Of a DNA stretch of 64,000 nt, positions 13,320 through 57,613 are shown piece after piece. Below the pieces are notes generated by a model that made no database searches, was not told the origin of the DNA, and was given only the letters and a program-made list of their open reading frames with translations. Origin of the DNA: Deltaproteobacteria bacterium (GTDB lineage: Bacteria; Bacteroidota; Bacteroidia; Chitinophagales; Saprospiraceae); contig JBLMZC010000021.1 of assembly GCA_050258615.1 (NCBI GenBank), positions 12,404 through 76,403 on the forward strand. Reading direction: 5' to 3'. A program made the translations under genes and the position numbers. The number at the start of each line of letters is the position of its first letter. The stretch's first letter is position 1.

Positions 13320-13355
13320 AAAACCTTATAGGTTTCCTAAAACCTATAAGGTTTT
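13320..13355. repeat. REP-like perfect hairpin (AAAACCTTATAGGTTT / AAACCTATAAGGTTTT)
   Basis: About 16-bp perfect inverted repeat with a 3-nt loop. The same arm sequence recurs at 57494-57528. Confidence 0.8.
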
Positions 13356-13542
13356 GAAGCACCTAAAGTTTTCAATTTCAGTCACTTTGGAACAGTTTTT
13401 GTCGTTTTATCTTTGTAATTATTTTTTTTAACGTTATAAATCATTTTTAAGATGAAAAAACAAAATTTTTTAGATCAAATTACCCCCCCCCTTTATGGGT
13501 AAATAGCTGTATAACAGCACATTACGATTAGCGGTTTTTAGC

Positions 13543-18499: not shown

Positions 18500-18699
18500 A
18501 AGATAAACTAATTAAGTTGGTTAATAATATGTTAAATGTTTTAAGGTATCTCCCTAAAAAAAATTAGGGACAAATTTAATAAAAAACTCCAAGGGTGCAT
18601 AATCAATGATTAAGTTTTTAATATAAATATAGAATTATTTTATATTACAAAATCAAATATGTCAATTAAATGGCAACATTTTTTATGATTTCATCTCTG

Positions 18700-18988
18700 G
18701 AAGGGGGAGAGGAGGAATTTATGATTTACGATTTATGATTTACGATTTACGAAGTACGATTTACGAAGTACGATTTACGATTTACGAAGTACGATTTTAA
18801 GTGAAAAGTGAAAAACTAAAAGTGAATAGTTGAAAGTGTAAAGTTAAAAGTAGAAAGTGGGATTGGAATTATAGAACATTGGTAATTAAACCTCAAAACT
18901 ATAATACCATAATACCATAAAACCATAATACCTTCTACCTTCCAACCTTTTACCCTTCAACCCTTTAGCCCTTTTACCCTTTCACCTC
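18700..18988 (+). repeat. Type I mosaic repeat element (GGAGGAATTT, then B words gatttacga, A words gtgaaaagt, F words ataatacc/ttaccctt)
   Basis: Tandem degenerate words in fixed order. The B/A junction acgattttaagtgaaaagtgaaaaactaaaagtgaa also occurs at 41101-41150 (reverse) and 56060-56090. Confidence 0.85.
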
Positions 18989-18993
18989 ATATA

Positions 18994-21305: not shown

Positions 21306-24017
21306 TCAGAATTCGATAGTGTCACCAATATGTAGTGAATTGTCTGATTTTTTGTCTTTATTTTTAGTTTCTTTTTTTTCAATTATTTCTTCATCAGGAA
21401 ATGATTTTTCATCATTTGTATCACTTGTCGTTTCATCTTTGAACCTATTATTTTCTTCTTCAGAATAGTCTTCTTCTTCATTAAATTCTTCTGAAGCAGT
21501 ATCGTCATCCATCATGATTTTATTAGTATGCTCTATTGATTTAATTGTGAATTCACCAATTTTATTTCCCATAGCTTTCCAACCTTTGATGCCGACTATT
21601 TCGGATGCATTCAGTTCTTTTTCCTGATTGATCTTATTGTGAATATATGTAATTTTGATTATCGGATTTTCATCAAAACTGACAAAGTACAACCTGGCAT
21701 CTTTATGTTCTGAAATGAAGAGGAATTTTTCATCTACCTTATTGGTCTCGATCTTAAACCTCTTTACCATCGACCACTGTTTATCACCATCGTAGTGGAC
21801 GGCAGTGATCACGGTATCTTCATTTAACTGATGAATATCTGTGATGTTTTGATAATCGAGTGTGATCACTTTACTGACTTCTTTTATTTCATAATGCCCA
21901 GATTTGTAGATCACTATGATTTTATCTTCAGTATCGAATTGACCAAGATATTTTCCCAGCTCGTTTTTATTCAATTTTCCCGTTATTTCATCGTACCAGT
22001 ATTTTTGTTTTCCGAGAGAAGATTTTCCTTTTTCCAGAAAACTCACCTTTTTTACCGGATATTTGGTGACCGTATTACCAAGGGAACTCCTGCCTTTTAT
22101 CATCAGATTTCCAAAGTCAAAATCAAAAACCTTGTTTTTTGCTTTGCAACCAGGTGTAAGGAATACTTTGACTATTTCTGTTTCACCGTTTGGATTTACT
22201 GAAAAATACAGGACTTTACTGAAATTATGATCTGTGATAAGATTATATTCTTTATCCCTTGTTATAGCATTAACCTGGAATCTCTTTGCATATGTATTGC
22301 CGGTATTTCCATCGAGATAGATAAGGTGATAAGTTGTGCGTTCATCATCTTTTTTCCATAATCCGGCATGAAGGAGGTTTTTACCCATAAATACCTTATC
22401 TCCTATACGGTTGATTATGCATTTTCCATCCTGTCTGAAAGCTATTATGTCATCGATATCAGAACACTCACAAACAAAATCACCGATTTTGGAATTCGTA
22501 CCAATAAATCCGTTTTCAGGATCGATATAAAGCTTGGCATTGTTTACGATCACATTTTTAGTTGCAATTGTCTCGATATTGATTATTTCAGTACGTCTTT
22601 CCCTGCCGGTACCGTAAGTTTTTTTAAGGTGTTCGAAATATTTGATGGTAAATTCGGTGAGGTGTTTCAGATCGTAATTTACCTGCTTCAGTTCATTTTC
22701 GAGTTCTGCCAGATATTCGTCGGTTTTAAAGGAATTATACTTCGATATTTTTTTGATTTTAATCTCTGTGAGTTTAATGAGATCGTCCTGTGTGATCTCT
22801 CTCATCAGCTTTAGTCTCTTATCAGCTGGCTGAAGTTCGGAAGGAGTAGCAACATATTTTCTCAAGCCTATGTCGATTATTTCCAGGGCTGTCTCAAAGC
22901 TTTCTGCCTCTTCAATGTCCCTGTATATCCTATTTTCAATAAAGATCTTTTCAAGGCTTGTGAGGTGCCATTTTTCGAGCAGTTCATTTTTTTTGATCTC
23001 GAGTTCCTGCCTTAGGAGTTCTTTGGTCCTGAAAGTTGACAGCTTCAGGATTTCAAGCACTGTGAGGAATTCGGGTTTATTATTGACAATTACACATGCA
23101 TTGGGAGAGATAGAAACTTCGCAATCAGTGAAAGCATATAGCGCATCACGGGTAACTTCAGGTGAAATGCCTGGCAGTAACTGGACTTCTATCTCCACAT
23201 TTTTTGCTGTATTGTCAGTGATCTTTTTTATTTTTATTTTTCCTTTCTCCACTGCTTTCAGTACACTGTCTATCAGTGTCTCGGTGGTAACTCCATAAGG
23301 CAATTCATTGATTATAAGGGTTTTCTTATCAAGAATGTCGATTTTTGCCCTTACTTTCACTTTTCCGCCACGCTCACCATCCTTGTACTCTGAAATGTCT
23401 ATTTTTCCTCCCGTCTGGAAATCCGGATATATGACCACTTCTTCGTTCTTTAGTATGCAAACCGATGCATCTATTAATTCAATGAAATTGTGAGGGAGAA
23501 TTTTAGTTGAAAGGCCTACTGCAATCCCTTCAACACCCTGAGCGAGTACCAACGGAAACTTCATCGGGAGATGCACTGGTTCCTTGTTTCTGCCATCGTA
23601 AGATTGTTGCCATTCTGTAGTCTGCGGATTGAAAGCCACTTCGAGAGCAAATTTTGTTAGTCTGGCTTCGATATAACGTGGTGCAGCCGCTGAATCACCT
23701 GTACGAATATCGCCCCAGTTTCCCTGAGTATCGATAAGCAGATCCTTTTGGCCAAGATTGACCAGTGCATCCCCAATTGCTGCATCTCCATGTGGATGAA
23801 ACTGCATAGTATGCCCAATGATATTGGCTACCTTGTGGTATCTGCCATCATCCATTCTGTACATACTATGAAGAATACGTCTTTGAACCGGTTTTAATCC
23901 GTCTTCAAGCGAGGGAACAGCTCTTTCGAGTATAACATATGATGCATAATCAAGGAAATAGTCTTTATACATTCCCTTGAGACTGATTATTTTATCCTGC
24001 GGATTGAAATTTTCCAT
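21306..24017 (-). CDS. parC: DNA topoisomerase IV subunit A (GyrA/ParC family) with acidic C-terminal tail
   Basis: DGLKPVQRRILHSM, HPHGDAAIGDALVNLGQ and AAPRYIEARL. The ~900 aa form without a GyrA-box is typical of Bacteroidota ParC. Confidence 0.8.
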   Translation of the reverse strand: MENFNPQDKIISLKGMYKDYFLDYASYVILERAVPSLEDGLKPVQRRILHSMYRMDDGRYHKVANIIGHTMQFHPHGDAAIGDALVNLGQKDLLIDTQGNWGDIRTGDSAAAPRYIEARLTKFALEVAFNPQTTEWQQSYDGRNKEPVHLPMKFPLVLAQGVEGIAVGLSTKILPHNFIELIDASVCILKNEEVVIYPDFQTGGKIDISEYKDGERGGKVKVRAKIDILDKKTLIINELPYGVTTETLIDSVLKAVEKGKIKIKKITDNTAKNVEIEVQLLPGISPEVTRDALYAFTDCEVSISPNACVIVNNKPEFLTVLEILKLSTFRTKELLRQELEIKKNELLEKWHLTSLEKIFIENRIYRDIEEAESFETALEIIDIGLRKYVATPSELQPADKRLKLMREITQDDLIKLTEIKIKKISKYNSFKTDEYLAELENELKQVNYDLKHLTEFTIKYFEHLKKTYGTGRERRTEIINIETIATKNVIVNNAKLYIDPENGFIGTNSKIGDFVCECSDIDDIIAFRQDGKCIINRIGDKVFMGKNLLHAGLWKKDDERTTYHLIYLDGNTGNTYAKRFQVNAITRDKEYNLITDHNFSKVLYFSVNPNGETEIVKVFLTPGCKAKNKVFDFDFGNLMIKGRSSLGNTVTKYPVKKVSFLEKGKSSLGKQKYWYDEITGKLNKNELGKYLGQFDTEDKIIVIYKSGHYEIKEVSKVITLDYQNITDIHQLNEDTVITAVHYDGDKQWSMVKRFKIETNKVDEKFLFISEHKDARLYFVSFDENPIIKITYIHNKINQEKELNASEIVGIKGWKAMGNKIGEFTIKSIEHTNKIMMDDDTASEEFNEEEDYSEEENNRFKDETTSDTNDEKSFPDEEIIEKKETKNKDKKSDNSLHIGDTIEF

Positions 24018-24129
24018 TCAGTATTTCTGTATTATTTCATAGATACCTATCAAAAAATAGGATACATTAAAAAATACAAAGATACGTTATAATATGATAT
24101 TTATGAAATGATATATAAAATAAAATTGA

Positions 24130-24500
24130 ATATGTGAATAGAGATCAGAGAACAGTAAACAGTCATCAGGGATTAATTTACTTCGTGACTTTGCAGCTTT
24201 GCCTGAGAGTTAAGAGTGAAAAGTTAAGAGTGAAAAGTTAAGAATGAAAAGTTAAGAGTGAAAAGTTAAGAGTGAATAGTGAAAAGTGAAGTATGAATAG
24301 TGATTAGTTAGCAGTCTTCAGTCGGCCAGTAGTAGTTTTAGGTCTTTTAAAAATAGGTGGCAAACGAATTACAAAGGTAAAACTAGACCAGATAAACGGA
24401 AAACTGACAACAGATTTAAAGTTAAAAGTGAAAAGTGAAAAACCATCAAACCGAGTAACCATGAACAAGGTACGATCTACGATTTGAATGAATGATTGAC
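24130..24500 (-). repeat. Type III composite repeat element (inverted copy of 39457-39730)
   Basis: The reverse complement aligns by eye with 39520-39725, including the non-repetitive cores gttttacctttgtaattcgtttgccacctattttta and ctcaggcaaagctgcaaagtcacgaagtaaattaatccctgatgactg. Confidence 0.8.
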
Positions 24501-24547
24501 TAATTGAGAACAGAAATAATTAACAATTTTAAATTTACAATTTCCAA

Positions 24548-26564: not shown

Positions 26565-26890
26565 TTACGATTCAGCAGTAGGACAGCAGTCGGCAGTCGG
26601 CAGTCAACAGTCGGCAGTCGGAAGTTGGCAGTCGGAAGTCGGCAGTCAAGAGTCGGCAGTCAGCAGTCGGAAGTTAACTCAGTAAATAAATAATTCAATA
26701 TCTCAATATCTCAGTTGGCAGTTGGCAGTTGGCAGTCTTCAGTCAGCAGTCTGAAGTCAGCAGTCTGAAGTCAACAGTCTGCAGTTAACTAAATAACTCA
26801 TTAAATCAATAACTAAATAACTCAATAAATAAATAAATAAATAATCAAATCACTCCTTTAATTATTTTGCTACCATAATAATTCCTCTCC
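26565..26890 (+). repeat. Type II mosaic repeat element (C words ggcagtc/cagtcttcagt alternating with E words ataactcaataa; ends AATTCCTCTCC)
   Basis: Starts right after the 26564 stop. Same module order and orientation as 46148-46463. Confidence 0.85.
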
Positions 26891-26974
26891 TTCGATTTTT
26901 CAGGCCAAAACTGTTTGAGGTAGGTGACAGTAATGCCACAGAAGACCAATTTCACAAGAAAGCAAAAAGAAAAA

Positions 26975-27115
26975 ATCACATTATAATGTGATTCAGGCAA
27001 ATTTCATTATTCAAACAGGGTTATTTATAGCGAAAATCACACTAAAATGTGATTATGTTTGTATAATTTAAAAAATAAACATACTTTTGATGCAAAAATC
27101 ACAGTATAATGTTAG
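26975..27115 (+). promoter_or_regulatory. Three putative HipB operators (AAAATCACA-N6-TGTGAT) plus a TActTTTG -7-like promoter motif
   Basis: atcacattataatgtgat (26975-26992) is a perfect 18-bp palindrome. atcacactaaaatgtgat lies at 27036-27053. atcacagtataatgttag (27098-27115) overlaps the hipB ATG. Spacing is 61-62 bp. TACTTTTG at 27082-27089 fits the Bacteroidota -7 consensus TAnnTTTG. Confidence 0.55.
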
Positions 27116-27318
27116 TCTCGATATTAGGGGAAACCATTAAAAACAGAAGAAAGGAGTTAAACATAACTCAACCTCACTTAGCTGAACTGGCAGAAGTGAG
27201 CACCAATACTTTATATAAACTTGAGCGTGGGCAAGGCAATCCTTCGTTAAATATATTGAATAAATTAGTGGAAGTATTAGGCTTGGAATTAATACTTGAT
27301 GTAAAGAAGCAACATTAA
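27109..27318 (+). CDS. hipB: XRE-family HTH protein, HipB-like
   Basis: 69 aa with the typical HTH_3 pattern IKNRRKELNITQPHLAELAEVSTNTLYKLERGQGNPSLNIL. First gene of a tightly packed triplet. Confidence 0.75.
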   Translation: MLVSILGETIKNRRKELNITQPHLAELAEVSTNTLYKLERGQGNPSLNILNKLVEVLGLELILDVKKQH

Positions 27319-27322
27319 GTAA

Positions 27323-27652
27323 ATGAGAGCATTAGAAATATATTGTAATGGGATTTTGGCAGGAATACTAATAGAAGAAAATCGTCGACATTATGTTTTC
27401 AAGTATGACGACAGATATTTTACTGATACAAGTAAGCAAGCAATAAGTTTGACCTTGCCAAAATCGCAAAAAGAATACAGTAGCAATTTTTTGTTTCCAT
27501 TCTTTTTCAATATGTTGAGTGAAGGGGTAAATCGAAAATTGCAAAGTACTCAATTGAGAATAGACGAAGAAGATAATTTTGGCTTGTTAGCAGCAACAGC
27601 ACAATATGATACGATAGGGGCAATAACAGTAAAAACAATAGTGGTAAAATGA
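27323..27652 (+). CDS. hipS: HipS-like protein (stand-alone HipA N-terminal subdomain)
   Basis: 109 aa. MRALEIYCNGILAGILIEENRRHYVFKYDDRYF resembles the HipA N-terminal (couple_hipA) domain. Its stop overlaps the next start (ATGA). Confidence 0.65.
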   Translation: MRALEIYCNGILAGILIEENRRHYVFKYDDRYFTDTSKQAISLTLPKSQKEYSSNFLFPFFFNMLSEGVNRKLQSTQLRIDEEDNFGLLAATAQYDTIGAITVKTIVVK

Positions 27653-28653
27653 ATGTAGATGAATTACAATACTGTCCGGGAACTTTGGCTGAAGGTTTTT
27701 CTACTTACAGCCCAAGCTGCTTAAGGAATTTGTTTAATGGCAAAAAAGTAAATCATATTTTGGCTTATGAGCATCCACAGCAAAGTGAACAGATGGCTGA
27801 GCAGTTCATGGAAAATCGAAAACACATATCTATATCAGGAGTGCAGGAAAAATTAAGTTTGCTTTTAGAGAAAAATATATTGCGATTGACGAAAGAAGGA
27901 GAACGTGGAATGTATATACTCAAACCGATACCAAGGGATCTGAAAAAGGTTGACCAAGTTCCTGCTAACGAACATTTGACAATGCAAATAGCTAAACAAG
28001 TATATGGACTAAAAACGGCAGAAAACGCCATGATTTTCTTTAATAATGGGACCCCGGCTTACATCACTAAACGATTTGACATAAAGGAAGATGAAAGCAA
28101 ATGGGGAACGGAAGATTTTGCAACGTTGGCAGGGAAAACAAAAGACAATTCAGGACAAAATTTCAAATATGAATATAGTTATGAAGAGGCGGGGCTTTTG
28201 ATACAAAAATATGTTTCCGCTTGGAGGGTTGAAATAGAAAAATATTTTTCTTTAGTAGTATTCAATTTTTTGTTTTCAAATGGTGATGCTCACTTGAAAA
28301 ACTTTTCATTGCTGGAATCATTAAAAGGGGACTACTTGCTTAGTCCGGCTTATGATTTAGTAAATACAAGACTGCATGTAGACGATACTGATTTTGCATT
28401 GGATAAAGGACTATTTGCAGACGACTTTAAAAGTGAGCAGTACAAAAAAAATGGACATCCTTCAAAAAGTGATTTTTATGAATTTGCAAAACGTATAGGA
28501 GTTATTGAAAGCAGATTTAAAAAACTAATAAGTCCGTTTTTGGATAAGCAAGCATTTGTTGAAAAATTAATCTATCATTCATTTTTAAGTGATTCAAACA
28601 AGAGAGGTTATTTGTTGATGTATAATACAAAAAGAAACTATTTAAATTCGTAA
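27649..28653 (+). CDS. hipT: HipT-like Ser/Thr kinase toxin (HipA C-terminal kinase core lacking the N-subdomain)
   Basis: Gly-rich loop HISISGVQEKLSL (the SIS doublet known from HipT), catalytic GDAHLKNFSLL, and the Mg-binding region PAYDLVNT. Confidence 0.75.
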   Translation: MNVDELQYCPGTLAEGFSTYSPSCLRNLFNGKKVNHILAYEHPQQSEQMAEQFMENRKHISISGVQEKLSLLLEKNILRLTKEGERGMYILKPIPRDLKKVDQVPANEHLTMQIAKQVYGLKTAENAMIFFNNGTPAYITKRFDIKEDESKWGTEDFATLAGKTKDNSGQNFKYEYSYEEAGLLIQKYVSAWRVEIEKYFSLVVFNFLFSNGDAHLKNFSLLESLKGDYLLSPAYDLVNTRLHVDDTDFALDKGLFADDFKSEQYKKNGHPSKSDFYEFAKRIGVIESRFKKLISPFLDKQAFVEKLIYHSFLSDSNKRGYLLMYNTKRNYLNS

Positions 28654-28830
28654 ATGGCCTGAGAATTTACTGAAAATAAAAGCGCCTGATAAGATTCCTC
28701 CTTGTTTACTCTCAAAGTAATGATATGCATTTTCGCCCCAAAGGCACCAACTTTGATAATATCATTCCGTACGTAGTGAGGAATCTTTTCTTTCATTGCC
28801 AGCAATTATCTTATATTGAAATCAGGTTAT

Positions 28831-29047
28831 ACCATTTACAATTATTCTTTAGTCCAATTGCAAAAGGTCTTACTGACACTGACACTGATACTGACACTTC
28901 GGTCAGCACAGGCACTTTGGTCTGCACAGGCACTTTGGTCAGTACAGGCACTTCGGTCAGCATTTAAAACATAAAGCCGATACAATACCTCTATAGTCCA
29001 ACTTTGTCGGTACTTTTTCAGATATACTTTCAGTATTACTTTCAGAG
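28831..29047 (+). repeat. D-family mosaic element, copy a
   Basis: Scaffold accatttacaattattctttagtccaattg, then (actgac)n, then about 3.5 copies of an 18-mer, then cacttcggtcagcatttaaaac...tagtccaactttg...cagatatacttt. Aligns with 57265-57420. Confidence 0.85.
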
Positions 29048-29110
29048 CCTGTCTCGCTAAACGGGAGTCCAAGCATAACCCAAAGAATTTAATAATACCA
29101 TTTCTATATT

Positions 29111-29380
29111 AAGGTGATAAGAATGATTTGCAGCAAGAGGACAAAAGTCCTTTGCTGCGGAGTCCCGCTCCGTGATAAAGGTCTTACTGACACTGACACT
29201 GACACTGACACTGACACTTTGGTCAGTACAGGCACTTTGGTCAGTACAGGCACTTTGGTCAGTACAGGCACTTTGGTCAGTACAGGCACTTTGGTCAGTA
29301 CAGGCACTACGGTCAGCACAAGACTGACCTCTTATCACAAACTTTAAATTTAAAGCAGTTTTAAAAAAGAATTCCTCTGA
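29111..29380 (+). repeat. D-family mosaic element, copy b (largest array), preceded by a 12-bp-stem hairpin
   Basis: Hairpin gcagcaagaggac-aaaa-gtcctttgctgc (29130-29158). (ACTGAC)x5 at 29186-29215. (GGTCAGTACAGGCACTTT)x5 at 29221-29310. Inverted flanks gtgataaaggtc / gacctcttatcac. Confidence 0.9.
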
Positions 29381-29526
29381 TTCTGAAGCTTTTTTTTTGC
29401 AATGGAAAATATGCAAAATAATTATATTATTTAATAATAGAATTGGTATAAATTGCAAATTTGAGATACACTAAAAAAACCCAAAAATGACTATCATCTG
29501 AAAAAAATCAATCTAAAACTAATGGT

Positions 29527-34684: not shown

Positions 34685-34890
34685 AGGTGGTAAATGGCAT
34701 TATATCAGGGGTAAATGGAGGGGAGCAGTATTCAGTCAGCAGTCTTCAGTCAGCAGTAGGCAGTCTTCAGTAGGCAGTCAGCAGTCTTCAGTAGGCAGTC
34801 TTCAGTCGGCAGTAGGCAGTCTTCAGTCTTCAGTCGGTAGTAGGCAGTCTCCTACTTCTGACTTCTGTCTCCTTACTTCTGAATTCTTTC
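34685..34890 (+). repeat. Mosaic repeat (ggtaaatgg words, GGAGGGGAG, then a C-word array cagtcttcagt/aggcagt, then cttctgac words)
   Basis: Tandem degenerate words fill the gap between the LytTR regulator stop and the downstream lipoprotein gene. Confidence 0.8.
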
Positions 34891-34895
34891 ACACA

Positions 34896-38460: not shown

Positions 38461-39456
38461 TTACAAAATTAAGCCAGGAATGATTTCCAAATGGTTTTCC
38501 TTCCAGATTTTCATCTGCATTTCCTGATCGATATTTCCACCGGAGATAATAATAAGAATTTTCTTTGGTGTAGGTTGTGTTTTAAGCCATTGTCTTGCTG
38601 CTTCCATTGACATGGCACTCGTTGGTTCAATAGATATCTTAAGCAAATGGGTCAGCCACTGTGTCCAGTATACAATGGATTGTTCATCAATTTCATACAT
38701 ATCGTCAAGTTTCTTAAGATATTCGAATGTGATACTTCCTACTGACATAGTCATAGCACCATCAGCAAGTGTGTCAGGTACAGAATCAAGATTGAGTATC
38801 GAATTTGCCCTGAGTGATCTGGCAGCGTCATTGGCATTCAGTGGTTCAGCCCCGATCACTTTGATATCAGGATCCAAACCATGACTTGCGATGACTGTTC
38901 CTGACAGCAATCCACCTCCTCCGCATGGGGCAAAAATAGCATCAACCTGCCCAAGCTCATTTATAGCCTCATAAGCTGCAGTTCCCTGTCCGGCAATGAC
39001 AAGGTCACTGTTAAATGGATGCAACCAGTAGTTACCTTCCTCTGAAGCAGCTGATTTTACATTGTCATCGGTTTCCACCCTTGAATTGCAAAGGACTGTT
39101 TTGGCTCCATAAGCTTGGGTAGCCTGTATTTTTATCTTTGATGAATATACCGGCATGTAGATTGTAGATGGAATATCGAACTCGCTTGCTGCCCATGCAA
39201 CAGCCTGAGCATGATTGCCGGAACTATTGGCAACAATGTGCCTGGGCTTTTTTCCATTTTCAATCAGCCATGCAACACTGTTGGCGGCTCCCCTGGCCTT
39301 AAAGGCTCCTATTTTCTGCATGCATTCTGCCTTGAAATATATCTCATGGCCTATCCATTTGTTGAGTAATGATGAAGTATAAACAGGAGTTTTATTGATC
39401 AGTTTTCCGATCCTGTTCCCGGCATTGATTATATCTTCGATTTTAAGTAGTTTCAT
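38461..39456 (-). CDS. PLP-dependent threonine/serine dehydratase or serine-racemase-family enzyme
   Basis: FKAECMQKIGAFKARGA (PLP-Lys motif), SSGNHAQA and GGGGLLSG (phosphate-binding loop). Confidence 0.8.
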   Translation of the reverse strand: MKLLKIEDIINAGNRIGKLINKTPVYTSSLLNKWIGHEIYFKAECMQKIGAFKARGAANSVAWLIENGKKPRHIVANSSGNHAQAVAWAASEFDIPSTIYMPVYSSKIKIQATQAYGAKTVLCNSRVETDDNVKSAASEEGNYWLHPFNSDLVIAGQGTAAYEAINELGQVDAIFAPCGGGGLLSGTVIASHGLDPDIKVIGAEPLNANDAARSLRANSILNLDSVPDTLADGAMTMSVGSITFEYLKKLDDMYEIDEQSIVYWTQWLTHLLKISIEPTSAMSMEAARQWLKTQPTPKKILIIISGGNIDQEMQMKIWKENHLEIIPGLIL

Positions 39457-39927
39457 AGGTAATTGTTAATGGTTAATTGTAAATTGTAAATTGTAAATTT
39501 TTCATTTTTAGCTTTTCACTTTTAATCAGTTGTCCGTTGTCAGTTGTCTGTATATTGGTGTCGTTTTACCTTTGTAATTCGTTAGCTACCTATTTTTATA
39601 AGATCTCAAACTGCTGACTGCCAACTGAAGACTGCAGACTAATCATTCTTCACTTTTAACTTTTCACTCTTAACTCTCACGCAAAGCCGCAAAGTCGCAG
39701 TGCAAATTAATCACTGATCACTGATAATTTTTCACTCTTCACTTTTAATTTTTCATACTTCAGTCCACAGTCTTCAGTCCACAGTCTTCAGTCCACAGTC
39801 AGCAGTCTTCAGGCTCCACTCCAAAGTCAACAGTTCTTAGATCATTTTCAAATTAACACATTTTCAAAATTTCAAATTGGTACATCATCAAATCATCTCA
39901 TTTTCAAATTTTCAAATTGCCTCATTT
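39457..39927 (+). repeat. Composite mosaic repeat filling the whole intergenic gap (F, G, A words; type III cores; C words; ttttcaaatt words)
   Basis: Runs from the dehydratase ATG (3 nt from CCATTAACAATTA on the minus strand) to the stop codon of the serine hydrolase gene, which lies inside the last cattttcaaatt word. Confidence 0.85.
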
Positions 39928-40971
39928 TCAAATTGACAACTTTCGTATAAGTTTAATCAAAACCCTGAATGACAAATCATTAAATGCAGTCTGATTGACT
40001 GTTCCTGTTATGTACAGATCTCTTTCAGGGCTATAGAAAGCCAGTGCACCGCTAAGTCCTGAATGTCCGATCAGATCCGGAATTTTTCGGAAAGGATCAA
40101 AGATCCAAGGAAGTCTGAACCTGTGAATTCCAATTCCGGATTGCATGGGAAAGAAAATTTTATTCCATTTTTTTAATCCACCGATATAGTAGGCAGGAAA
40201 CAATTTTCCTGAAAAAAAAGCTTCAAGGAATATCATCATTTCCTGTGATGTTGATACTACACCACCATCAGGGCCGAATGAAGACATGGCTTTTGGTATA
40301 TGAAGTTCTTTTTCTTTGAAATACAGAGTCAATGGCTTTTGATCGTTGATATCAGTGTACAGGTATGTTGACTTTAAATCTAATGGTTTAATTATCAATT
40401 CATTATAATTTTCTGATATATTTTTCCCCGTGATATTTTCAATTATTTTTCCCAATAATTGATAATTTGTATCTGAATAATATGCTTTGCCTTTAGTTCC
40501 CGGGGCAAATAACTGATCAAGTGATTTGCTGTAACTTATAATTTCTTCAAAAGGCAGGTATCGGTCGTTTCCTTTGGTGATCTCACTGACAATACTATTG
40601 CCATTATCGTCTTTCTGAAGGAAATAATCAGACAATCCGGAAGTATGTGCCAGAAGGTGTGTTATAGTTAGTTTATCAGAATAATCAGTACCATTATATA
40701 CGTGGAGTTTATTCATTATGTCCCTGTCAAAGTAAGTGTGTATTTTGTCGTTTAAGCCGAGTTTGCTTTGTGATATCAGATTTAGAATTACAGCAGTTGT
40801 AAACAGTTTTGAAGTACTGGCTATAAAAAACTGCCTGTCTTTTTCTATGTTTCCACTACTACCATTCCAGGTTTCTCCCCTGTATTTTAAGCAGAATGAT
40901 GTGCCAAAGATCTTTTTATTATCGATAGCTTTATCAAGAACTGAGTGGAGGGATTGTTGGTTTAGAGGCAT
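39928..40971 (-). CDS. Serine hydrolase, beta-lactamase/transpeptidase-like (class C/esterase family)
   Basis: SxxK motif FIASTSKLFT and YSDTNY (YxN). I place the start at the Met at 40971, because the 16 codons upstream (to 41019) are encoded by repeat words. Confidence 0.7.
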   Translation of the reverse strand: MPLNQQSLHSVLDKAIDNKKIFGTSFCLKYRGETWNGSSGNIEKDRQFFIASTSKLFTTAVILNLISQSKLGLNDKIHTYFDRDIMNKLHVYNGTDYSDKLTITHLLAHTSGLSDYFLQKDDNGNSIVSEITKGNDRYLPFEEIISYSKSLDQLFAPGTKGKAYYSDTNYQLLGKIIENITGKNISENYNELIIKPLDLKSTYLYTDINDQKPLTLYFKEKELHIPKAMSSFGPDGGVVSTSQEMMIFLEAFFSGKLFPAYYIGGLKKWNKIFFPMQSGIGIHRFRLPWIFDPFRKIPDLIGHSGLSGALAFYSPERDLYITGTVNQTAFNDLSFRVLIKLIRKLSI

Positions 40972-40974
40972 AAA

Positions 40975-41150
40975 TATAATTGTTAATGGTAAAAGGGTAA
41001 TAAGGTAACAGGGTAACAAGGCATTTGGTAATATGGGTTATTAAAATAATTGTAAATTGTAAATTTTTAACTTTTACTTTATACTTTCAACTTTTCACTC
41101 TTCACTCTTAGTTTTTCACTTAAATTCGTAAATCGTATATTAATTTCTCC
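40975..41150 (-). repeat. Type I mosaic repeat element (minus-strand order GGAGAAATT, B, A, G, F, CCATTAACAATTA)
   Basis: Starts 2 nt after the GH125 stop and ends 5 nt before the serine hydrolase ATG. Word order and junctions match 18700-18988 and 56017-56226. Confidence 0.85.
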
Positions 41151-41152
41151 AT

Positions 41153-42592
41153 TTAATCAAATTTCATTTCCAATAGTTCAGGATGATAAGAATTTACCTT
41201 GATAATGAATTCTCCAAAAAGGGTATTTGCCCAGGCAAACCATTTTCTTGTGAACTTTGCAGGATCGTCCTGATTAAATGATTCATGCATAAAACCGGTC
41301 CTGTCATGTGTTTTCAATAGTGTTGATATGCATTGTCTGACCTCCGTTTTGTCATTGCTTGTAAGACCTCTCATAATTATGGAAATTGGCCAGATATTTC
41401 CTGTTGAGGTATGGGGACTACCGATTCCTTCTGCTGCAGTTCCTTTGAAATAAAATGGATTATTTTCTGATAATACATATTTCCTGGTGTTCAGGTAAAG
41501 CAGATCATCTGAATTCATGCAATTGAGATAAGGCAATGACAAAAGTGAAGGTACATTTGCATCATCCATAAAATTGAAACTTCCATACCCGTTAATTTCA
41601 TAAGGAATGATCATTCCAAAATCGGGATGATCCAGTACTGCATACCTATTAAGTGCTTTCTTTACTACGAGTTTCAGTTCATGACTTTCATTTGCCATTT
41701 TTACTTCGTTAACCGATGGTAATGAAAATATTTCTGATAAATATCCAAGGATCTCCACAGCAAAATAATTTGACGGGATCAGATACGGGTAGATTGTACA
41801 ATCATCACTTGGTCTGAATATCGAACAGATCAGACCATTAGGCCTGACTGGATAACCATAACCTCCTAATGGAACACCATCTGTAGCCCATGAAGTTGTT
41901 CTTTGAAAAGTATACGGACCCTGGTCGTTATACCGTTGCTGCTCTTTGAATGTCCTGATAATCAGCTCCATTGCCTGCTTCCATTCAGTGGTGAATATCG
42001 ATTCATCTCCTGTTTGTTTCCAGTATCCGTAAGCAAGCCTCACAGGATAACAAAGGCTGTCAATTTCCCATTTTCTTTCGTGGATCCCTGGTTTCATTAC
42101 TGTGAGATCATTTTTCCAGTAACTTTCTTTTTTTAAGTCCTTATAAAAGGCATTGGCATAAGGATCGAGTATGATACACTTTACTTGTCTTTGTATCACA
42201 CCCTTTATCAACTCCTTGAGTTTGTTGTCTTTCTCTATCAGTGGGACGTAAGGCCATACCTGTGCTGTACTGTCTCTCAGCCACATAGCATCGATATCAC
42301 CTGTGATGACGTAAGTATCAGGCTTCCCATCGATATACTCAAAGTCAACTGTTGTGTCAAGAGTATTTGGAAAGCAGTTTTCAAACAACCAGGCTAATTG
42401 CTTATCTTTTATCGATGCTTTCATCTGATCTATGACTTCTTCAACAGCACTGCTGGTGAATTTTCTGTCGCCAGGTGATGGTCTTCTTGAAATGAAATCA
42501 ATATTTGATTCATTTGAAAAACCGAAGTTAGAAAAATACAAACTTGTACCGGCAATAATGCCTGTTTTGATAAATTGTTTTCGTGTATACAT
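41153..42592 (-). CDS. GH125 exo-alpha-1,6-mannosidase family protein
   Basis: GDIDAMWLRDSTAQVWPY and the overall ~480 aa (alpha/alpha)6-type pattern. Signal-like N-terminus. Confidence 0.7.
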   Translation of the reverse strand: MYTRKQFIKTGIIAGTSLYFSNFGFSNESNIDFISRRPSPGDRKFTSSAVEEVIDQMKASIKDKQLAWLFENCFPNTLDTTVDFEYIDGKPDTYVITGDIDAMWLRDSTAQVWPYVPLIEKDNKLKELIKGVIQRQVKCIILDPYANAFYKDLKKESYWKNDLTVMKPGIHERKWEIDSLCYPVRLAYGYWKQTGDESIFTTEWKQAMELIIRTFKEQQRYNDQGPYTFQRTTSWATDGVPLGGYGYPVRPNGLICSIFRPSDDCTIYPYLIPSNYFAVEILGYLSEIFSLPSVNEVKMANESHELKLVVKKALNRYAVLDHPDFGMIIPYEINGYGSFNFMDDANVPSLLSLPYLNCMNSDDLLYLNTRKYVLSENNPFYFKGTAAEGIGSPHTSTGNIWPISIIMRGLTSNDKTEVRQCISTLLKTHDRTGFMHESFNQDDPAKFTRKWFAWANTLFGEFIIKVNSYHPELLEMKFD

Positions 42593-46147: not shown

Positions 46148-46463
46148 TGGTAGCTTTTTATGTTAAAAATTCATCCTGTTTATGATTTATGATTTATAAA
46201 TATTTTATTGATTGAGTTTTTGAATTATTGAATTTTTGAGTTATTGAGTTTTTTAGTTATTGAGTTATTGAGTTATTGAAATATTTAGTTATTGAATTAT
46301 TTAGTTAAATTCTGACTGTCGACTGAAGACTGATGACTGCCGACTGCTGACTGAGCTATTGAGTTTTTGAATTATTTTACCAAATACTATAATACCAATA
46401 TATCCAACCGTTCTACCTTGTAACCATTCTACCAAAACACAATTCTCCATTATCAATTATTCA
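46148..46463 (+). repeat. Type II mosaic repeat element between the glycyl-radical enzyme and its activase
   Basis: tttatgatttatga, then ttgagttattgag words, then ctgactgtcgactgaagactg words, then ctattgag, then actataatacca...ttctaccttgtaacc, then AATTCTCC. Same order as 26565-26890. Confidence 0.85.
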
Positions 46464-48938
46464 TTAAAAATTCTCATATTCGGTCCGGTCAATAATCTCC
46501 TGCTGCAGATCCGCATTCATATCGTTAAAATAATCGCTGTAACCTGCCATCCTCACAAGCAAATCACGGTATTCCTGAGGATTTTGCTGTGCAGCGAGCA
46601 AAGTAGCTGTGTCAACAATATTGAACTGCACATGATGACCTCCCAAATTAAAATATGTCCGTATTAGCTTGCCAAGTTTTTCAATATCCTGTTCTCTTTT
46701 AAGTAGTTGTGGAAGAAATCTCAGATTAAGCAGAGTTCCCCCCGACTTGGTCTGATCGAGTCTGGCAAGTGATTTCATCACTGCAACCGGACCATTTATA
46801 TCGCAACCATGAGATGGAGAAGTGCCGTCAGAAATAGATTTTCCGGCAAGTCTGCCATTGGGGGTTGCCCCCAGAACTTTGCCAAAATATATATGGCAGG
46901 TAGTCGAAAGCATATTCACATGATATGTTTCTCCCTTGACATTGGGTTTACCATCAATGGCTTTTATAAGGTCTTCATATACTCTTAGAGCTATGCTGTC
47001 AGCATAATCATCATCATTTCCGAAGAATGGGGTTCTGTTGAGAATGTATTGCCTCATATATTCATTATCTGAAAAATTCATTGATATTGCTTCAAGTATT
47101 TGCTTCATCCGGAATTTTTTATCTTCAAAGACATGTTTTTTTAGTACTGACAAGCTATCAGTTACAGTGGCAAGGCCGGTACACTGAATATAATTGGTAT
47201 TATACCTTGGCCCGCTGTTGTAATAATCTCTTCCTTTTTCAATACAATCATCTATAACTACCGATAAGAAAGGAGCAGGTGCATATTTTGCAAACATTTT
47301 ATCAATGTAATTACTCACTTTTATCTTAAGGTCAACTATGTAATTTAGTTGTTTGCTAAAAGCATTATAGAGTTCTTCGAAATTCAGAAAATCCACAGGA
47401 TCACCTGTTTCTATCCCTGCCAGATTGCCGGTTAACGGATCTGTTCCATTATAAAGGGTTATTTCAAGAATTTTCGGGACGTTAAGATATCCTGTAAGTA
47501 TAAATGCTTCCTTTCCGAATGCCCCTACCTCAATACAACCACTGCAACCTCCTTCCCTGGCATCCGTCAGTGTTTTACCCATTCCTGTCATTTCCCTTAC
47601 ATAAATGTCCGGATTAAATACCGAGGGATAGCCGTGTCCCTGTCTGATAAGTCTGCAGGCTGCCTGTAGAAAATCATCGGGTGTCTTTGAACTTATGTGG
47701 ACTGAATTTCCGGGCTGTAATAAGTGCAGTTCCTCAATGGCTTCCAGCATCAGATAGGAAACTTCACTCACCCCATCCGATCCATCGCTTTTGATACCCC
47801 CGATATTTATATTTGTGAAATCATTATATGTTCCACTCTCTTTTGCAGTAATACCAACTTTTGGAGGAGCGGGTTGATTGTTGACTTTGATAAACATACA
47901 GGAAATCAACTCTTTAGCACTTTCTCTTGACAGTGTTCCGTCTTTAATTCCCATTTCATAAAAAGGATTAAGGTGCTGGTCAAAATGCCCCGGATTCATG
48001 GCATCCCACCCATTTAGTTCAGTTATAATTCCTAAATGAACAAACCAGTACATTTGTATTGCTTCCCAAAAATTAGACGGAGCATATGAAGGTATATGTC
48101 TGCAATTAGAAGCTATTGTCAGTAATTCTTTTTTTCTGAGTTCGTTTTTCTCTGATTTTGCCAATTCTTCAGCCTTAGCTGCATGTCGTTCTGCAAGCAA
48201 AATGATTGCATCACATGAGATTGCCATAGCTTTTAATTCTTCTGCTTTATCAACAGCATCAGGATCGTTCATGTAATCAAGGGAATTCAGATGTGTTTCG
48301 ATATCCTCCTTGAAATCGAGCATTCCTTTAGTGTATATCTTCCCATCAAGTGCAGTATGACCAGGAGCCCTTTGCTCCATGAATTCTGTAAAGAGGCCAG
48401 CCTCATACGCTTTTATCCAGTTTTCTGGAACATGATTGAATATCCTTTCCCTCATAGTCCTGCCTTTCCAATAAGGAATCACTTTTTTTTCATAAGTACG
48501 GATATCTTTTTTGCTGACCAGATATGGCTGCTGTTCTCTTTTGTTAAGCACATCGAAATCTTCAGTACTATGACAGGTGAGTTCAGGAAAAGTTGGTACA
48601 GCTTTAGGTATTGGACCTCTTTCTCCAACTATCAATTCATCATCACCAATATAAATAGTTTTTTTTGAACAGTGGTCAAGAAATGATAATGCACGCATGA
48701 CGGGTACAGAATATTTGCCATTATTTTCCTGGTAAAACTCAGTCTGATGAAGGGCACGTTCGATTGAAATAGAAGGAACAGCCTCAAAACTTTGCTTTCT
48801 TAATTTTCTGATCCTTTCATTCATACCAGGTGAACTAAGATTATTTATTGATTTATAATAATTGCCTTCAGAATTTGGTTTGCGCTGTGGCAGACCGGTT
48901 TTATCTTCTTTACCTTTGATTGTTTTTATTGTCATCAT
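46464..48938 (-). CDS. Glycyl-radical enzyme, PFL-like dehydratase/lyase class, substrate unassigned
   Basis: Glycyl radical motif VRMAGYSDYF. Cys loop GGCSGCIEVG (GCxE type). 824 aa. An alternative start at the Met at 48824 (MNERIRKLRK) is possible. Confidence 0.8.
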   Translation of the reverse strand: MMTIKTIKGKEDKTGLPQRKPNSEGNYYKSINNLSSPGMNERIRKLRKQSFEAVPSISIERALHQTEFYQENNGKYSVPVMRALSFLDHCSKKTIYIGDDELIVGERGPIPKAVPTFPELTCHSTEDFDVLNKREQQPYLVSKKDIRTYEKKVIPYWKGRTMRERIFNHVPENWIKAYEAGLFTEFMEQRAPGHTALDGKIYTKGMLDFKEDIETHLNSLDYMNDPDAVDKAEELKAMAISCDAIILLAERHAAKAEELAKSEKNELRKKELLTIASNCRHIPSYAPSNFWEAIQMYWFVHLGIITELNGWDAMNPGHFDQHLNPFYEMGIKDGTLSRESAKELISCMFIKVNNQPAPPKVGITAKESGTYNDFTNINIGGIKSDGSDGVSEVSYLMLEAIEELHLLQPGNSVHISSKTPDDFLQAACRLIRQGHGYPSVFNPDIYVREMTGMGKTLTDAREGGCSGCIEVGAFGKEAFILTGYLNVPKILEITLYNGTDPLTGNLAGIETGDPVDFLNFEELYNAFSKQLNYIVDLKIKVSNYIDKMFAKYAPAPFLSVVIDDCIEKGRDYYNSGPRYNTNYIQCTGLATVTDSLSVLKKHVFEDKKFRMKQILEAISMNFSDNEYMRQYILNRTPFFGNDDDYADSIALRVYEDLIKAIDGKPNVKGETYHVNMLSTTCHIYFGKVLGATPNGRLAGKSISDGTSPSHGCDINGPVAVMKSLARLDQTKSGGTLLNLRFLPQLLKREQDIEKLGKLIRTYFNLGGHHVQFNIVDTATLLAAQQNPQEYRDLLVRMAGYSDYFNDMNADLQQEIIDRTEYENF

Positions 48939-56016: not shown

Positions 56017-56226
56017 GAGAAGGGAGGATTTAGGATTTGTTATGTGCGATTTACGAAATGCGATTTACGATTTTGGAGTTAAAAGTGAAGAGTGAAGAAT
56101 GAAGAATATTAAATGTAAAATGAAGACTGGAATGTTGGAAACTGGAAATACAAATCGTAATTCGTAATTAATAATTCGTAATTCAACTGTTCAGCCATTA
56201 ACCATTTACAATTAACAATTAAAAAT
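56017..56226 (+). repeat. Type I mosaic repeat element filling the whole BNR-mltG gap
   Basis: Starts at the base after the TAG stop (GAGAAGGGAGGATTT), continues with gcgatttacga words and aaaagtgaagagtgaag words, and ends ccatttacaattaacaatta 5 nt before the mltG ATG. Confidence 0.85.
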
Positions 56227-57264
56227 ATGATTTTAACCAGAAATATTAAATTTATTATTTTAGCACTGATAATTGCCATGATCGCAGCAGGCTTATTTTT
56301 GCGAAAATGGCTGTGGATGGACAATGTTAAAGCTGAAACCGGTGAAACAGAATTATTGATACCGACAGGGTCAAAATATGAAGATGTCCTTGATATTATT
56401 AAGGAGAAAGACCTTTTGAAAAGTTACAGTTCATTTGATCTGGTAGCCAAAGTGCTGAAATATAAGGAACGTGAAATTTTACCCGGAAAGTACATTATAA
56501 AGCCAAACATGAGCAGTCTGATGCTTGTCAGAATGCTAAGGGGAGGATTTCAGACACCAGTAAATATTACATTCAACAATGTCAGGACTATTGAGCAGCT
56601 GGCAGGAAAACTTGGCAAAAATATTGAGCCTGATTCCCAGGAATTGCTTGAGGTTTTAATGGATTCTGCATATCTTGCTGAAATCGGTTTTAATAAATAC
56701 GATGTACTAACTATGTTTATTCCAAATACATATGAATTTTTCTGGAATACCGGAGCTGATAAACTTTACAGAAGAATGAAATCAGAACATGATAAATTCT
56801 GGAAATCAACTGAAAGACAGGAAAAATTGAAATCTCTGGGACTTAATCAGAAAGAAGTTTATATTCTGGCATCAATAGTTGAAAAAGAAACGCTTGTAAA
56901 TAGTGAAAAACCAATTATTTCGTCAGTTTATCTTAACAGGCTTCGTTCAGGGCAGAGACTGCAGGCTGACCCGACGGTAGTTTTTGCTACCGGAGACTTC
57001 AGTCTGAACAGAGTATATCAGAAACATACTCAGCTCAATTCTCCATATAATACATATAGAAAATCTGGATTACCTCCCGGGCCTATTTGTATGCCTGACA
57101 TAAGCACAATTGATGCTGTTTTGAATACAAAGGAAACAAATTATATGTTTTTCTGCGCTACAGGCGATGGAAGTGGCAAACATGTTTTTGCTGAAACATA
57201 CAGGCAACATATTGAAAATGCAAACAAATACAGGGAATTGCTTAATCAGCAGAATATCAGATAA
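56227..57264 (+). CDS. mltG: Endolytic murein transglycosylase MltG (YceG family)
   Basis: N-terminal TM helix, ILASIVEKET, LQADPTVVF, YNTY and GLPPGPI motifs. Confidence 0.85.
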   Translation: MILTRNIKFIILALIIAMIAAGLFLRKWLWMDNVKAETGETELLIPTGSKYEDVLDIIKEKDLLKSYSSFDLVAKVLKYKEREILPGKYIIKPNMSSLMLVRMLRGGFQTPVNITFNNVRTIEQLAGKLGKNIEPDSQELLEVLMDSAYLAEIGFNKYDVLTMFIPNTYEFFWNTGADKLYRRMKSEHDKFWKSTERQEKLKSLGLNQKEVYILASIVEKETLVNSEKPIISSVYLNRLRSGQRLQADPTVVFATGDFSLNRVYQKHTQLNSPYNTYRKSGLPPGPICMPDISTIDAVLNTKETNYMFFCATGDGSGKHVFAETYRQHIENANKYRELLNQQNIR

Positions 57265-57420
57265 TACCATTTACCATTATTATTTAGGCCAATTGTATCG
57301 AGGAACTGACACTGATACAGGCACTTCGGTCAGCATTTAAAATATAATGACGATGCAATAGCTGTTTAGTCCAACTTTGCTGGACTATTACAGATATACT
57401 TTTGGTATAATTTAAAAAAT
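57265..57420 (+). repeat. D-family mosaic element, minimal copy
   Basis: accatttaccattattatttaggccaattg...actgacactgatacaggcacttcggtcagcatttaaaat...tagtccaactttg...cagatatacttt. It has only about 2 hexamers and 1 copy of the 18-mer. Confidence 0.8.
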
Positions 57421-57493
57421 ATTATCAAGATAAATAGATGCAAATTCCATGCCAAAAGTGCTAAAAATCAAAACTTTAACATTTGGAGTCTCT

Positions 57494-57528
57494 AACCCTT
57501 ATAGGTTTTTCAGAAACCTATAAGGGTT
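57494..57528. repeat. REP-like perfect hairpin (AACCCTTATAGGTTT-ttcag-AAACCTATAAGGGTT)
   Basis: 15-bp perfect stem. The arm sequence is shared with 13320-13355. Confidence 0.8.
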
Positions 57529-57530
57529 GA

Positions 57531-57562
57531 AAAAATAGCTGCCCTTCCGGACAGCTATTTAT
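57531..57562. terminator. Bidirectional terminator between convergent mltG and the SPOR protein gene
   Basis: AAAAAATAGCTG-cccttccgga-CAGCTATTT, with an A-run before the stem and T-rich sequence after it. Confidence 0.55.
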
Positions 57563-57613
57563 CATGTATTATTTTTAGAAAAATATAAAAATCTATATGC
57601 TAATTTTCAGTTT

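Follow-up and report, generated by a model that had tools for sequence, protein, structure and literature searches.

Word arrays fill three intercistronic spacers from stop to start codon

We analyzed a 64,000-nucleotide stretch of contig JBLMZC010000021.1 (hereafter the window) for a group of intergenic elements that are built from short repeated words. Three of its spacers, at 40972-41152 (minus strand), 39457-39927 (minus strand) and 56017-56226 (plus strand), are stop-to-start arrays of 7-8-nt words. The flanking genes were assigned by Pfam as GH125, a beta-lactamase-family serine hydrolase, a PALP enzyme, a BNR/sortilin protein and YceG/MltG, the same identities as in a first-pass annotation that had been made from the DNA letters alone and had pointed out these junctions; the sequences it quoted were all found in place, almost letter for letter. 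The start codons of the three downstream genes are backed by orthologues of equal length (347, 331 and 345 aa).

The GH125-to-hydrolase spacer is spanned in its whole length of 181 nt by a type I mosaic element, E4 (40972-41152, minus strand). In the direction of transcription, E4 consists of a GGAG tract, B words (CGATTTA), A words (AAGTGAA), G words (TTTACAA), F words (TTACC) and two further G words. The GH125 stop codon (41153-41155) is followed by the dinucleotide AT and then by GGAGAAATTA at 41150-41141; the B word CGATTTACGA lies at 41135-41126, the A words at 41120-41066, two G words (TTTACAA) at 41063-41047 and the F words at approximately 41036-40988. At the downstream end, the 13-mer CCATTAACAATTA (40989-40977) is separated by TATTT from the hydrolase ATG (40971-40969). 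Scanning of E4 revealed no inverted repeats.

The hydrolase-to-PALP spacer corresponds to the type II composite E3 (39457-39927, minus strand, 471 nt). It starts within the upstream gene, as the first-pass annotation had noticed, with the hydrolase stop codon embedded in a AATTTGAAAATG word. Its first half comprises AATTTGAAAATG words, GACTGAA words, A words and a non-repeat core, and its second half CAGTC words, a second core, CAACTG words, A words and a G array (39461-39499), within which CCATTAACAATTA occurs at 39472-39460, 3 nt upstream of the PALP-dehydratase ATG. The type I element E5 (56017-56226, plus strand) spans the whole BNR-to-mltG spacer and is composed of a GGAGAAGGGAGG tract, B words, A words, inverted B' words and a G array (56195-56221); here, a copy of the 13-mer with one mismatch, CAATTAACAATTA (56209-56221), ends 5 nt upstream of the mltG ATG. 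Our reading thus agrees with the earlier description of three junctions that are filled edge to edge and carry the 13-mer, or its one-mismatch copy, 3-5 nt before the ATG, and the elements do supply complete promoter-less intercistronic linkers.

Purine tracts open the type I elements as well as a further array, E8: GGAGAAGGGAGG (56017-56040), GGAGAAA (41142-41152), GGGGGAGAGGAGG (18700-18722) and GGAGGGGAG (34717-34727). In three cases an ATG follows the tract and yields a mini open reading frame of 5-17 codons, in which the B words read as Y-D-L-R.

Arrays are restricted to noncoding DNA and form dispersed families

Arrays cover 1813 of the 9057 noncoding nucleotides of the window (20%) versus 131 of the 54943 coding nucleotides (0.24%). 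In line with this, self-identity at a lag of seven nucleotides is 0.362 in noncoding and 0.265 in coding DNA, and Tandem Repeats Finder reported 24 period-7 arrays, 22 of them noncoding, along with period-8 arrays and super-periods of 14, 21 and 28 nt. Consensus heptamer units include ATTTACG, AAGTGAA, GCAGTCG and CAATTTA, among others. Altogether, arrays are present at 11 or more spacers within 64 kb and make up at least eight word-array elements (E1-E8) plus four copies of a second family.

The elements are related to each other. Dispersed composites are 77-81% identical over 77-250 nt and share a common word order and a non-repeat core: positions 24137-24390 (E2) match the reverse complement of 39556-39746 (E3) at 81%, including the non-repeat core, 26629-26862 (E6) that of 46207-46377 (E7) at 79%, and 18780-18856 (E1) that of 41064-41140 (E4) at 77%. 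The shared order and core support common descent of the copies, which the first-pass annotation had preferred over independent growth of microsatellites. The succession of B by A words has five matches in the window compared with 0.00 expected, and the 13-mer has six matches at up to one mismatch compared with 0.34 expected, a number that none of 100 shuffles reached; when two mismatches are allowed, the excess is only about twofold (12 versus 5.8). The B/A junction ACGAWTTTAAGTGAAAA and the stretch AGTTGAAAGTRTAAAGT, which had been proposed to be conserved between copies, are exact in E4 (40972-41152) and in E1 (18700-18993), but are absent from the mltG junction.

The start-proximal box is a pair of G words

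The 13-mer consists of two successive units of the period-7 G-word array CMATTWA and is not a separate box. Hence, the sequence that had been described as a conserved terminal box is present at all three junctions but does not constitute a distinct conserved unit. Eight sites in the window carry G-word doublets. Three of these end 3-5 nt before a start codon; another lies 2 nt past the mltG stop codon (57267), one is found mid-spacer (28832), one inside an element (41047), and two near-copies are reversed beside stop codons (46447 and 24518). Where an array touches a start codon, its start-proximal module is always a sense-strand G-word array (three junctions, kept at two orthologous junctions). 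Sense, start-proximal repeats are represented by the G-word ends of E3, E4 and E5 at 3-5 nt, with the other arrays being reversed or located at stop codons.

By eye, 14 of the 22 noncoding heptamer words carry AGT or ACT at a fixed phase (AGTGAAA, AGTCGGC, AGTCTTC, AGTTGGC, AGTGATC and others), and most of the remaining ones carry TTAC or GTAA. An AGT/ACT core is also present in the cyanobacterial repeat units STRR1 (CCCCAGT) and STRR3 (CAACAGT) and in TAACTGA (reverse complement TCAGTTA), perhaps a sign of a shared bias in mutation or recognition.

Arrays adjoin stop codons and end at promoters or start codons

All elements E1-E8 adjoin a stop codon at a distance of 0-7 nt. Their orientation relative to transcription is mixed, with E3, E4, E5, E6 and E7 forward and E1, E2 and E8 reversed; these statistics rest on 8-10 elements, with about 150 kb of the clade covered. 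E1 (18700-18993, plus strand) is a type I element of a GGAGG tract, eleven B words, A words and F words; it is inverted relative to the flanking minus-strand genes, and its F end lies 7 nt from the GH20 stop codon. E2 (24130-24547, plus strand), of type II, is likewise inverted relative to transcription, and its G-word end adjoins the stop codon of the DUF134 gene. E6 (26565-26862, plus strand) is of type III, that is, CAGTCNN heptamers followed by TAACTMAA octamers; it begins right after an aminotransferase stop codon and borders a hipBA island. The second type III element, E7 (46148-46463, minus strand), occupies the spacer between the PFL and activase genes with reversed G and F words at the PFL stop codon, octamer and CAGTC arrays and a 45-nt unique leader. 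E8 (34720-34895, plus strand) is a CAGTC-type heptamer array of about 17 units, inverted relative to transcription, that starts about 6 nt past the stop codon of a LytTR-regulator gene.

Because Bacteroidota promoters differ, with TAnnTTTG as the consensus of their -7 motif, we searched for this motif with a regular expression rather than with a sigma-70 scan. It was not found on the sense strand of any spacer-filling element, and it is present in every unique gap between a reversed element and the next start codon (18571, 24077 and 34628). The first of these lies in a 200-nt unique, promoter-bearing gap between E1 and the start codon of the H+-PPase gene. The second lies in the unique parC promoter block (24018-24129) beside E2, which is kept in three lineages in which the adjoining arrays differ. 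As the arrays end at promoters or start codons, they fill whatever separates a stop codon from the next functional signal.

Leaders of Bacteroidota are A/U-rich and unstructured, independent of Shine-Dalgarno pairing and have a Kozak-like context. In the window, positions -20 to -1 are composed of 44% A, 36% T, 10% G and 9% C, and the G-word leaders, being A/U-rich and free of G, fit this local composition. They are the least structured of the 37 initiation regions in the window: minimum free energies from -30 to +30 are 0.0, 0.0 and -0.2 kcal/mol, compared with a mean of -4.18 kcal/mol (sd 2.72) for the other 34 genes. Nucleotides -1 to -5 and the distance to the ATG vary among the three junctions, and no fixed nucleotide is seen at -3.

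Among the spacer-filling elements, E4 is less stably folded than its shuffled counterparts (z=+1.14), E5 does not stand out (z=-0.9), and E3 contains one long internal hairpin that is formed by opposed GACTGAAG/CTTCAGTC arrays (z=-3.9). For six type II units, a consensus fold of -3.9 kcal/mol was obtained, to which covariation lends no support. Rfam returned no match at the gathering threshold in the whole window, and at E<=1 a single chance match in 39400-41200. A replication-strand polarity of the words was also considered and was dismissed, as orientations alternate within 64 kb.

Arrays turn over among relatives and are stable among strains

The names of homologues place the lineage within the Saprospiraceae. 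The metagenome-assembled genome (MAG) that carries the proteins P0001 and P0241, identical to window positions 39928-40971 and 21306-24017, is labelled "Deltaproteobacteria bacterium" at NCBI; judging from close homologues and gene order, which are those of Saprospiraceae (Bacteroidota), it is probably mis-binned or mislabelled.

Nine metagenome contigs with identical proteins, which come from independent metagenomes, are 99.5-100% identical to the window at the DNA level. Within this limited sample for a strain-level comparison of copy number, E3 and E4 show no copy-number change and one single-nucleotide polymorphism (SNP), compared with about 20 SNPs in a neighbouring gene. On short time scales the arrays are stable.

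Beyond the strain level, a high density of arrays is a feature of the window and its congener (contigs L017, L101 and L168; 80-88% protein identity to the window); in L102, L167 and L169 arrays are sparse. In the closest relatives, the GH125-to-hydrolase junction harbors an extra gene for a 174-aa acetyltransferase and plain spacers of 76 and 90 nt, and none of the E4 words nor the box were found at this junction in L017-L019. E4 is thus lineage-specific, and it is not required for hydrolase expression, since the orthologue of the relatives has an ordinary 90-nt leader. E8 is likewise absent from L017, so that presence/absence differences between orthologous junctions, a comparison the first-pass annotation had proposed, are indeed seen. 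At the E1 site and at the block 26565-29526, relatives have other genes or just a spacer of 34-129 nt.

Other spacers contain arrays in both genomes. The hydrolase-to-PALP spacer measures 471 nt in the window versus 788 nt in L017, where four type II units in tandem are followed by F words and then by G words that end in CACCATTAACAATTAATT-ATG. The BNR-to-mltG spacer of L101 and L103 retains the first 24 nt exactly and keeps the G-word end, with entirely different words in the middle. In L167 (78% MltG identity) and L102 (75%) the same spacer is plain and 119-120 nt long; the plain spacer common to both indicates that the whole mltG spacer was replaced in an ancestor of the array-rich lineages. 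The PFL-to-activase spacer with E7 has an orthologue in L017, from which it is set apart by two indels, one of 35 nt and one of about 49 nt, both multiples of seven.

At fourfold-degenerate sites, identity between the window and the congener is 0.43 for mltG and 0.51 for PFL. Plain spacers aligned to the congener no better than shuffled controls did. In the same congener genome, fourfold-site identity is 0.78 for the hydrolase and 0.70 for the PALP gene (38461-40971), with lower values for PFL (46464-48938) and mltG (56227-57264). This uneven divergence suggests that the hydrolase-PALP segment may have undergone recent recombination or transfer.

Gene content also differs at two of the array sites. 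In relatives, the GH20 and H+-PPase genes are separated by one or two further genes (window 18500-18993; L168:15070-16897), and both these genes and the acetyltransferase gene are gone from the window, which has arrays there (compare L017:9310-10000 and L168:15070-16897).

Short-read contigs from several metagenomes (L007-L009 and L018-L020) end inside arrays past the hydrolase stop codon. Such assembly breaks may hide the true abundance of arrays in MAGs.

Word arrays outside the clade

A metagenome scan with ParC retrieved only relatives of up to 63% identity and thus serves as a background set, not as a set of orthologous junctions. Heptamer arrays were rare in 80 more distant Bacteroidota loci (about 1.1 Mb in total). 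Searching a genome collection, which does not include the genome of the window, for the B-to-A word pair gave seven loci, of which two look like chance and five are real arrays; the latter are in MAGs that carry the labels Sumerlaeota, Bacteroidales, Alistipes, Chromatiales and Draconibacterium. One of them, an unrelated Bacteroidales MAG, resembles the window in its layout, with arrays of B, A and TTTGATC words that fill the folP-to-cdaA spacer up to 6 nt before the ATG; published cases (PMC4679880) are arranged in this way too. A BLAST search of plasmids with E3 gave no match.

Among IMG/VR contigs, (CGATTTA)3 was found in 16 and (AGTGAAA)3 in 36, with permuted control words of the same composition as CGATTTA in 4 and 6. 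Because control words are present as well, a shared vocabulary exceeds the background only modestly, and the idea of a universal vocabulary was not adopted. A/T-rich (CGATTTA)n and many other heptamer arrays are present in the IMG/VR contigs L104-L119, several of which have about 60% G+C; a start codon is often just 0-5 nt away, with the arrays oriented either way (L104:3430-3468, L105:8375-8403, L116:7668-7696).

Relation to known repeat classes

Bacterial intergenic arrays of heptamer repeats have been known since about 1990. Short tandemly repeated repetitive (STRR) sequences and long simple sequence repeats (LSSR) are older names for this class, on which there is a cyanobacterial literature; STRR1-3 are single-word arrays of CCCCAGT, TTGGTCA and CAACAGT. 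The words in the window differ from these canonical units, and TTGGTCA, which we take to be the cyanobacterial STRR2 unit, occurs only within an 18-mer of the second array family described below. Head-to-tail 7-nt units (5-11 nt for LSSR), restriction to noncoding DNA, dispersal over many loci and lineage-limited abundance were all found in the window. As far as Mrazek et al. 2007 is summarized in PMC4679880, STRR/LSSR share with our arrays the heptanucleotide unit, the noncoding location, the many dispersed loci and the lineage-limited abundance, and slippage has been put forward as the way in which they grow. In contrast to STRR/LSSR, the arrays of the window are from another phylum, use other words and are mosaic, and the conservation of their ends was measured.

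A close precedent is the work of MacGregor 2015 (PMC4679880) on Beggiatoaceae, cyanobacteria and five Bacteroidetes, in which intergenic heptamer repeats were described just 5' of start codons. Larger assemblages that combine several heptamers were noted in Gramella, Aequorivita and Elizabethkingia, and the orthologous spacers of relatives were free of repeats. In Nostoc, an influence on expression was reported for heptamer repeats near start codons (Pradhan et al., bioRxiv 10.1101/2022.06.06.494920). The earlier statement that the elements of the window could not be assigned to a known class is thus not tenable, because both papers deal with intergenic heptamer arrays that abut start codons, including mixed assemblages in Bacteroidetes. 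The TAACTGA-type repeats of PMC4679880 resemble our arrays in being tandem heptamers limited to intergenic DNA, often in sense orientation a few nucleotides from a start codon in spacers without ribosome-binding sites, which in the window applies to the G-word ends of E3, E4 and E5, and in being strain- or lineage-specific, with shorter, repeat-free spacers in relatives. They differ from them in several respects: Tandem Repeats Finder detected no TAACTGA arrays in the window, where TAACTMAA octamers come nearest; the window chains many word types in recurring order and contains dispersed composites with non-repeat cores; and its arrays fill spacers edge to edge, many of them reversed beside stop codons.

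Other classes fit less well. The bacterial interspersed mosaic elements (BIMEs) of enterobacteria consist of imperfect palindromic, hairpin-forming repetitive extragenic palindromic (REP) units of about 35 nt and are linked to REP-associated tyrosine transposases (RAYTs). REP/BIMEs are also extragenic, lie at 3' ends of genes or in intercistronic spacers and are mosaics of few motifs, with BIMEs reaching hundreds of copies. In contrast, the units in the window are 7-8-nt direct repeats, and E4 has no inverted repeats and folds worse than shuffled sequence. No RAYT (Y1) transposase was found among 20 window proteins scanned with Pfam. Miniature inverted-repeat transposable elements (MITEs) are not matched either: E4 and E1 have no terminal inverted repeats, and sites without an element indicate that whole spacers were replaced, with no clean insertion. 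The arrays do not behave like phase-variable contingency simple sequence repeats, as E3 and E4 show no indel in the limited sample of nine contigs, and neither an Rfam family nor a covariation-supported structure identifies them as a structured cis-regulatory RNA or small RNA. The G-word leaders resemble the ordinary leaders of the window in being A/U-rich, free of G and unstructured, and differ from them in consisting of repeat units instead of unique sequence.

Origin and role of the arrays

The pattern in the window is real and not a product of chance, and represents a dense, mosaic, lineage-specific variant of the known heptamer-array class. We lean, with moderate confidence, towards a lineage-specific family of modular STRR/LSSR-like mosaic repeat elements that would fill dispensable intergenic DNA, with selection acting on their edges at promoters and start codons. 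Arrays would grow, shrink and swap words by slipped-strand events or unequal recombination in unit-length steps, and composite blocks would be copied among intergenic sites to give rise to dispersed families. Their survival would be confined to dispensable DNA that begins at a stop codon and ends at whatever functional signal comes next. If the following gene carries a promoter of its own, an array of either orientation would halt at the promoter block; at promoter-less co-directional (operon-internal) junctions, where the flanking genes are probably co-transcribed, it would take over the whole spacer. Since no Shine-Dalgarno site is needed in Bacteroidota, arrays could approach the ATG to 3-5 nt. 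Selection next to the start codon would then tolerate only words that leave the initiation region A/U-rich, free of G and of start codons and unstructured, and the tolerated word would be the sense-strand G word CMATTWA. The CCATTAACAATTA box would thereby reflect compatibility with leader requirements rather than a dedicated initiation module.

The idea of an initiation element, as put forward by the first-pass annotation, is only partly supported. Sense G words are found at all start-touching ends and the corresponding leaders are the least structured ones. On the other hand, G words are also present at stop codons, in reversed orientation and mid-spacer, the type I element at 18700-18993 is inverted, and E4 is missing in relatives; this absence together with the promiscuous placement of the same words argues against an initiation box.

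Several points speak against this explanation. No copy-number polymorphism was seen among strains, as would perhaps be expected of slippage-prone arrays. Simple local slippage does not explain why B words are followed by A words in distant phyla as well, and the orientation statistics draw on the 8-10 elements and about 150 kb of the clade mentioned above. Moreover, the element spacers diverge less between species than plain spacers do: alignment gave 0.85 for E5 (0.68 for shuffled sequence) and 0.81 for E7 (0.69), with exact shared runs of 21-38 nt, and two lineages have the same first 24 nt past the BNR stop codon even though identity at fourfold sites of mltG is only 0.43. This points to element ends that are under purifying selection or have been homogenised with other copies, instead of evolving neutrally.

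That the element ends are conserved speaks for some function. In a rival reading, which we regard as unlikely, the arrays would be a dedicated post-transcriptional element. Here, sense arrays, chiefly their terminal G words, would bind a putative ribosome-associated or RNA-binding protein (S1, cold-shock or CsrA-like), which would set initiation or coupling of the downstream cistron without a Shine-Dalgarno sequence, as MacGregor envisaged for TAACTGA repeats. Such a role would account for the fact that every start-abutting array ends in sense G words 3-5 nt from the ATG, for a G-word end that is kept at two orthologous junctions despite changes of the internal words, for conservation above fourfold sites and for extremely unstructured leaders, and it has precedents in PMC4679880 and bioRxiv 10.1101/2022.06.06.494920. 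It does not readily explain why E4 is absent where the hydrolase orthologue of relatives has a plain leader, why the ancestral mltG spacer had no such words, or why the same words occur reversed and beside stop codons. Furthermore, nucleotides -1 to -5 and the spacing to the ATG are variable, and the B, A and F words that make up most of each element are variable and far from the ATG.

A bolder and rather improbable extension would be that the arrays constitute a code read in register: a heptad-reading factor would act on the polycistronic mRNA or on DNA, the arrays would be modular linkers that insulate or couple translation, and a vocabulary such as CGATTTA and AGTGAAA would have spread across phyla by horizontal transfer. 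If this were true, its footprint would be seen in the conservation of the ends above synonymous sites and in the fact that arrays at start codons always end in sense G words.

Slightly less probable still are non-autonomous mobile elements (MITE- or REP/BIME-like) that depend on a transposase encoded elsewhere, with the word arrays as their internal make-up. The 77-81% identity of dispersed copies, which extends to the non-repeat cores, the presence/absence differences between congeners, the location of arrays next to the hipBA island, to sites of gene gain or loss and to a synteny breakpoint, and the breaks of short-read contigs within arrays would all fit mobility. Yet E4 and E1 have no terminal inverted repeats, and empty sites reveal replacement of the whole spacer with neither a clean insertion nor a definable target-site duplication. 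The ends of the elements match gene boundaries instead of fixed termini, each copy differs in composition and length, E4 is unstructured unlike REP units, and no transposase or RAYT-type gene was detected among the 20 window proteins that were scanned.

Precedents for DNA-level binding arrays are the ribbon-helix-helix omega repressor, which polymerises on 7-bp heptads, and MetJ, which does so on 8-bp met boxes. A putative protein that polymerises on the heptad/octad repeats for repression, nucleoid organisation or segregation would be compatible with the strict 7/8-bp register and its 14/21/28-bp super-periods, with mixed orientations, if its function is orientation-independent, and with conservation above neutral expectation. 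We nevertheless consider it very unlikely, as at least ten unrelated word types would demand many specificities and promoters are avoided and not overlapped by the arrays. Finally, chance similarity of low-complexity A/T-rich intergenic DNA, for which the short A/T-rich words and the merely twofold excess of the 13-mer at two mismatches could be cited, is refuted by the 13-mer counts at up to one mismatch, the B-to-A pattern, the homology runs of 77-250 nt between distant sites and the lag-7 signal specific to noncoding DNA, and has practically no probability left.

The clade constitutes a compact comparative system in which the same junctions occur without an array, with arrays of conserved ends and swapped interiors, and with lineage-specific arrays. 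Because arrays stop exactly at promoters or start codons and their ends are better conserved than synonymous sites, the choice between neutral filler shaped at its edges and post-transcriptional signals becomes testable, as does the question of how near to an ATG arbitrary sequence can come without Shine-Dalgarno pairing. In practical terms, short-read assemblies break at such arrays, and gene starts can be miscalled because of them.

A second array family, a hipBA island and a probable inversion

A second family of arrays is represented at 57265-57413 (plus strand), beginning 0-2 nt past the mltG stop codon, with further copies at 2722-2830 (reverse complement), 28832-29046 and 29186-29320. 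Its layout comprises a G-word start, (ACTGAC)n hexamers, an array of the 18-mer CACTTTGGTCAGTACAGG with up to 5.9 copies and a hairpin-containing tail, and the copies sit in convergent spacers. A possible copy at L169:7499-7627 keeps the AAGGTCT-ACTGAC junction and has a single ACTGAC and no 18-mers; the alignment is weak (45% mean column identity). If genuine, this copy would suggest that family-2 arrays have expanded in situ.

The island at 26565-29526 contains a hipBA-type toxin-antitoxin module (HipA_N at 27323-27652, HipA_C at 27649-28653) with three operator-like palindromes AATCACAnTAnAATGTGATT nearby, at approximately 26974, 27034 and 27103. E6 borders the module on one flank and family-2 arrays on the other. 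Since these convergent genes are just 34 nt or 129 nt apart in L168 and L169, the hipBA block can be regarded as an island that was inserted and has arrays at its borders.

Four relatives have an ABC-transporter ATPase gene in convergent orientation to mltG; in the window, this gene lies at 12473-13165. Its displacement from mltG implies that about 44 kb were inverted. The spacers at the two breakpoints (13166-13542 and 57265-57613) share the hairpin AACC(C)TTATAGGTTT...AAACCTATAAGG(G)TT, at approximately 13325 and 57495.

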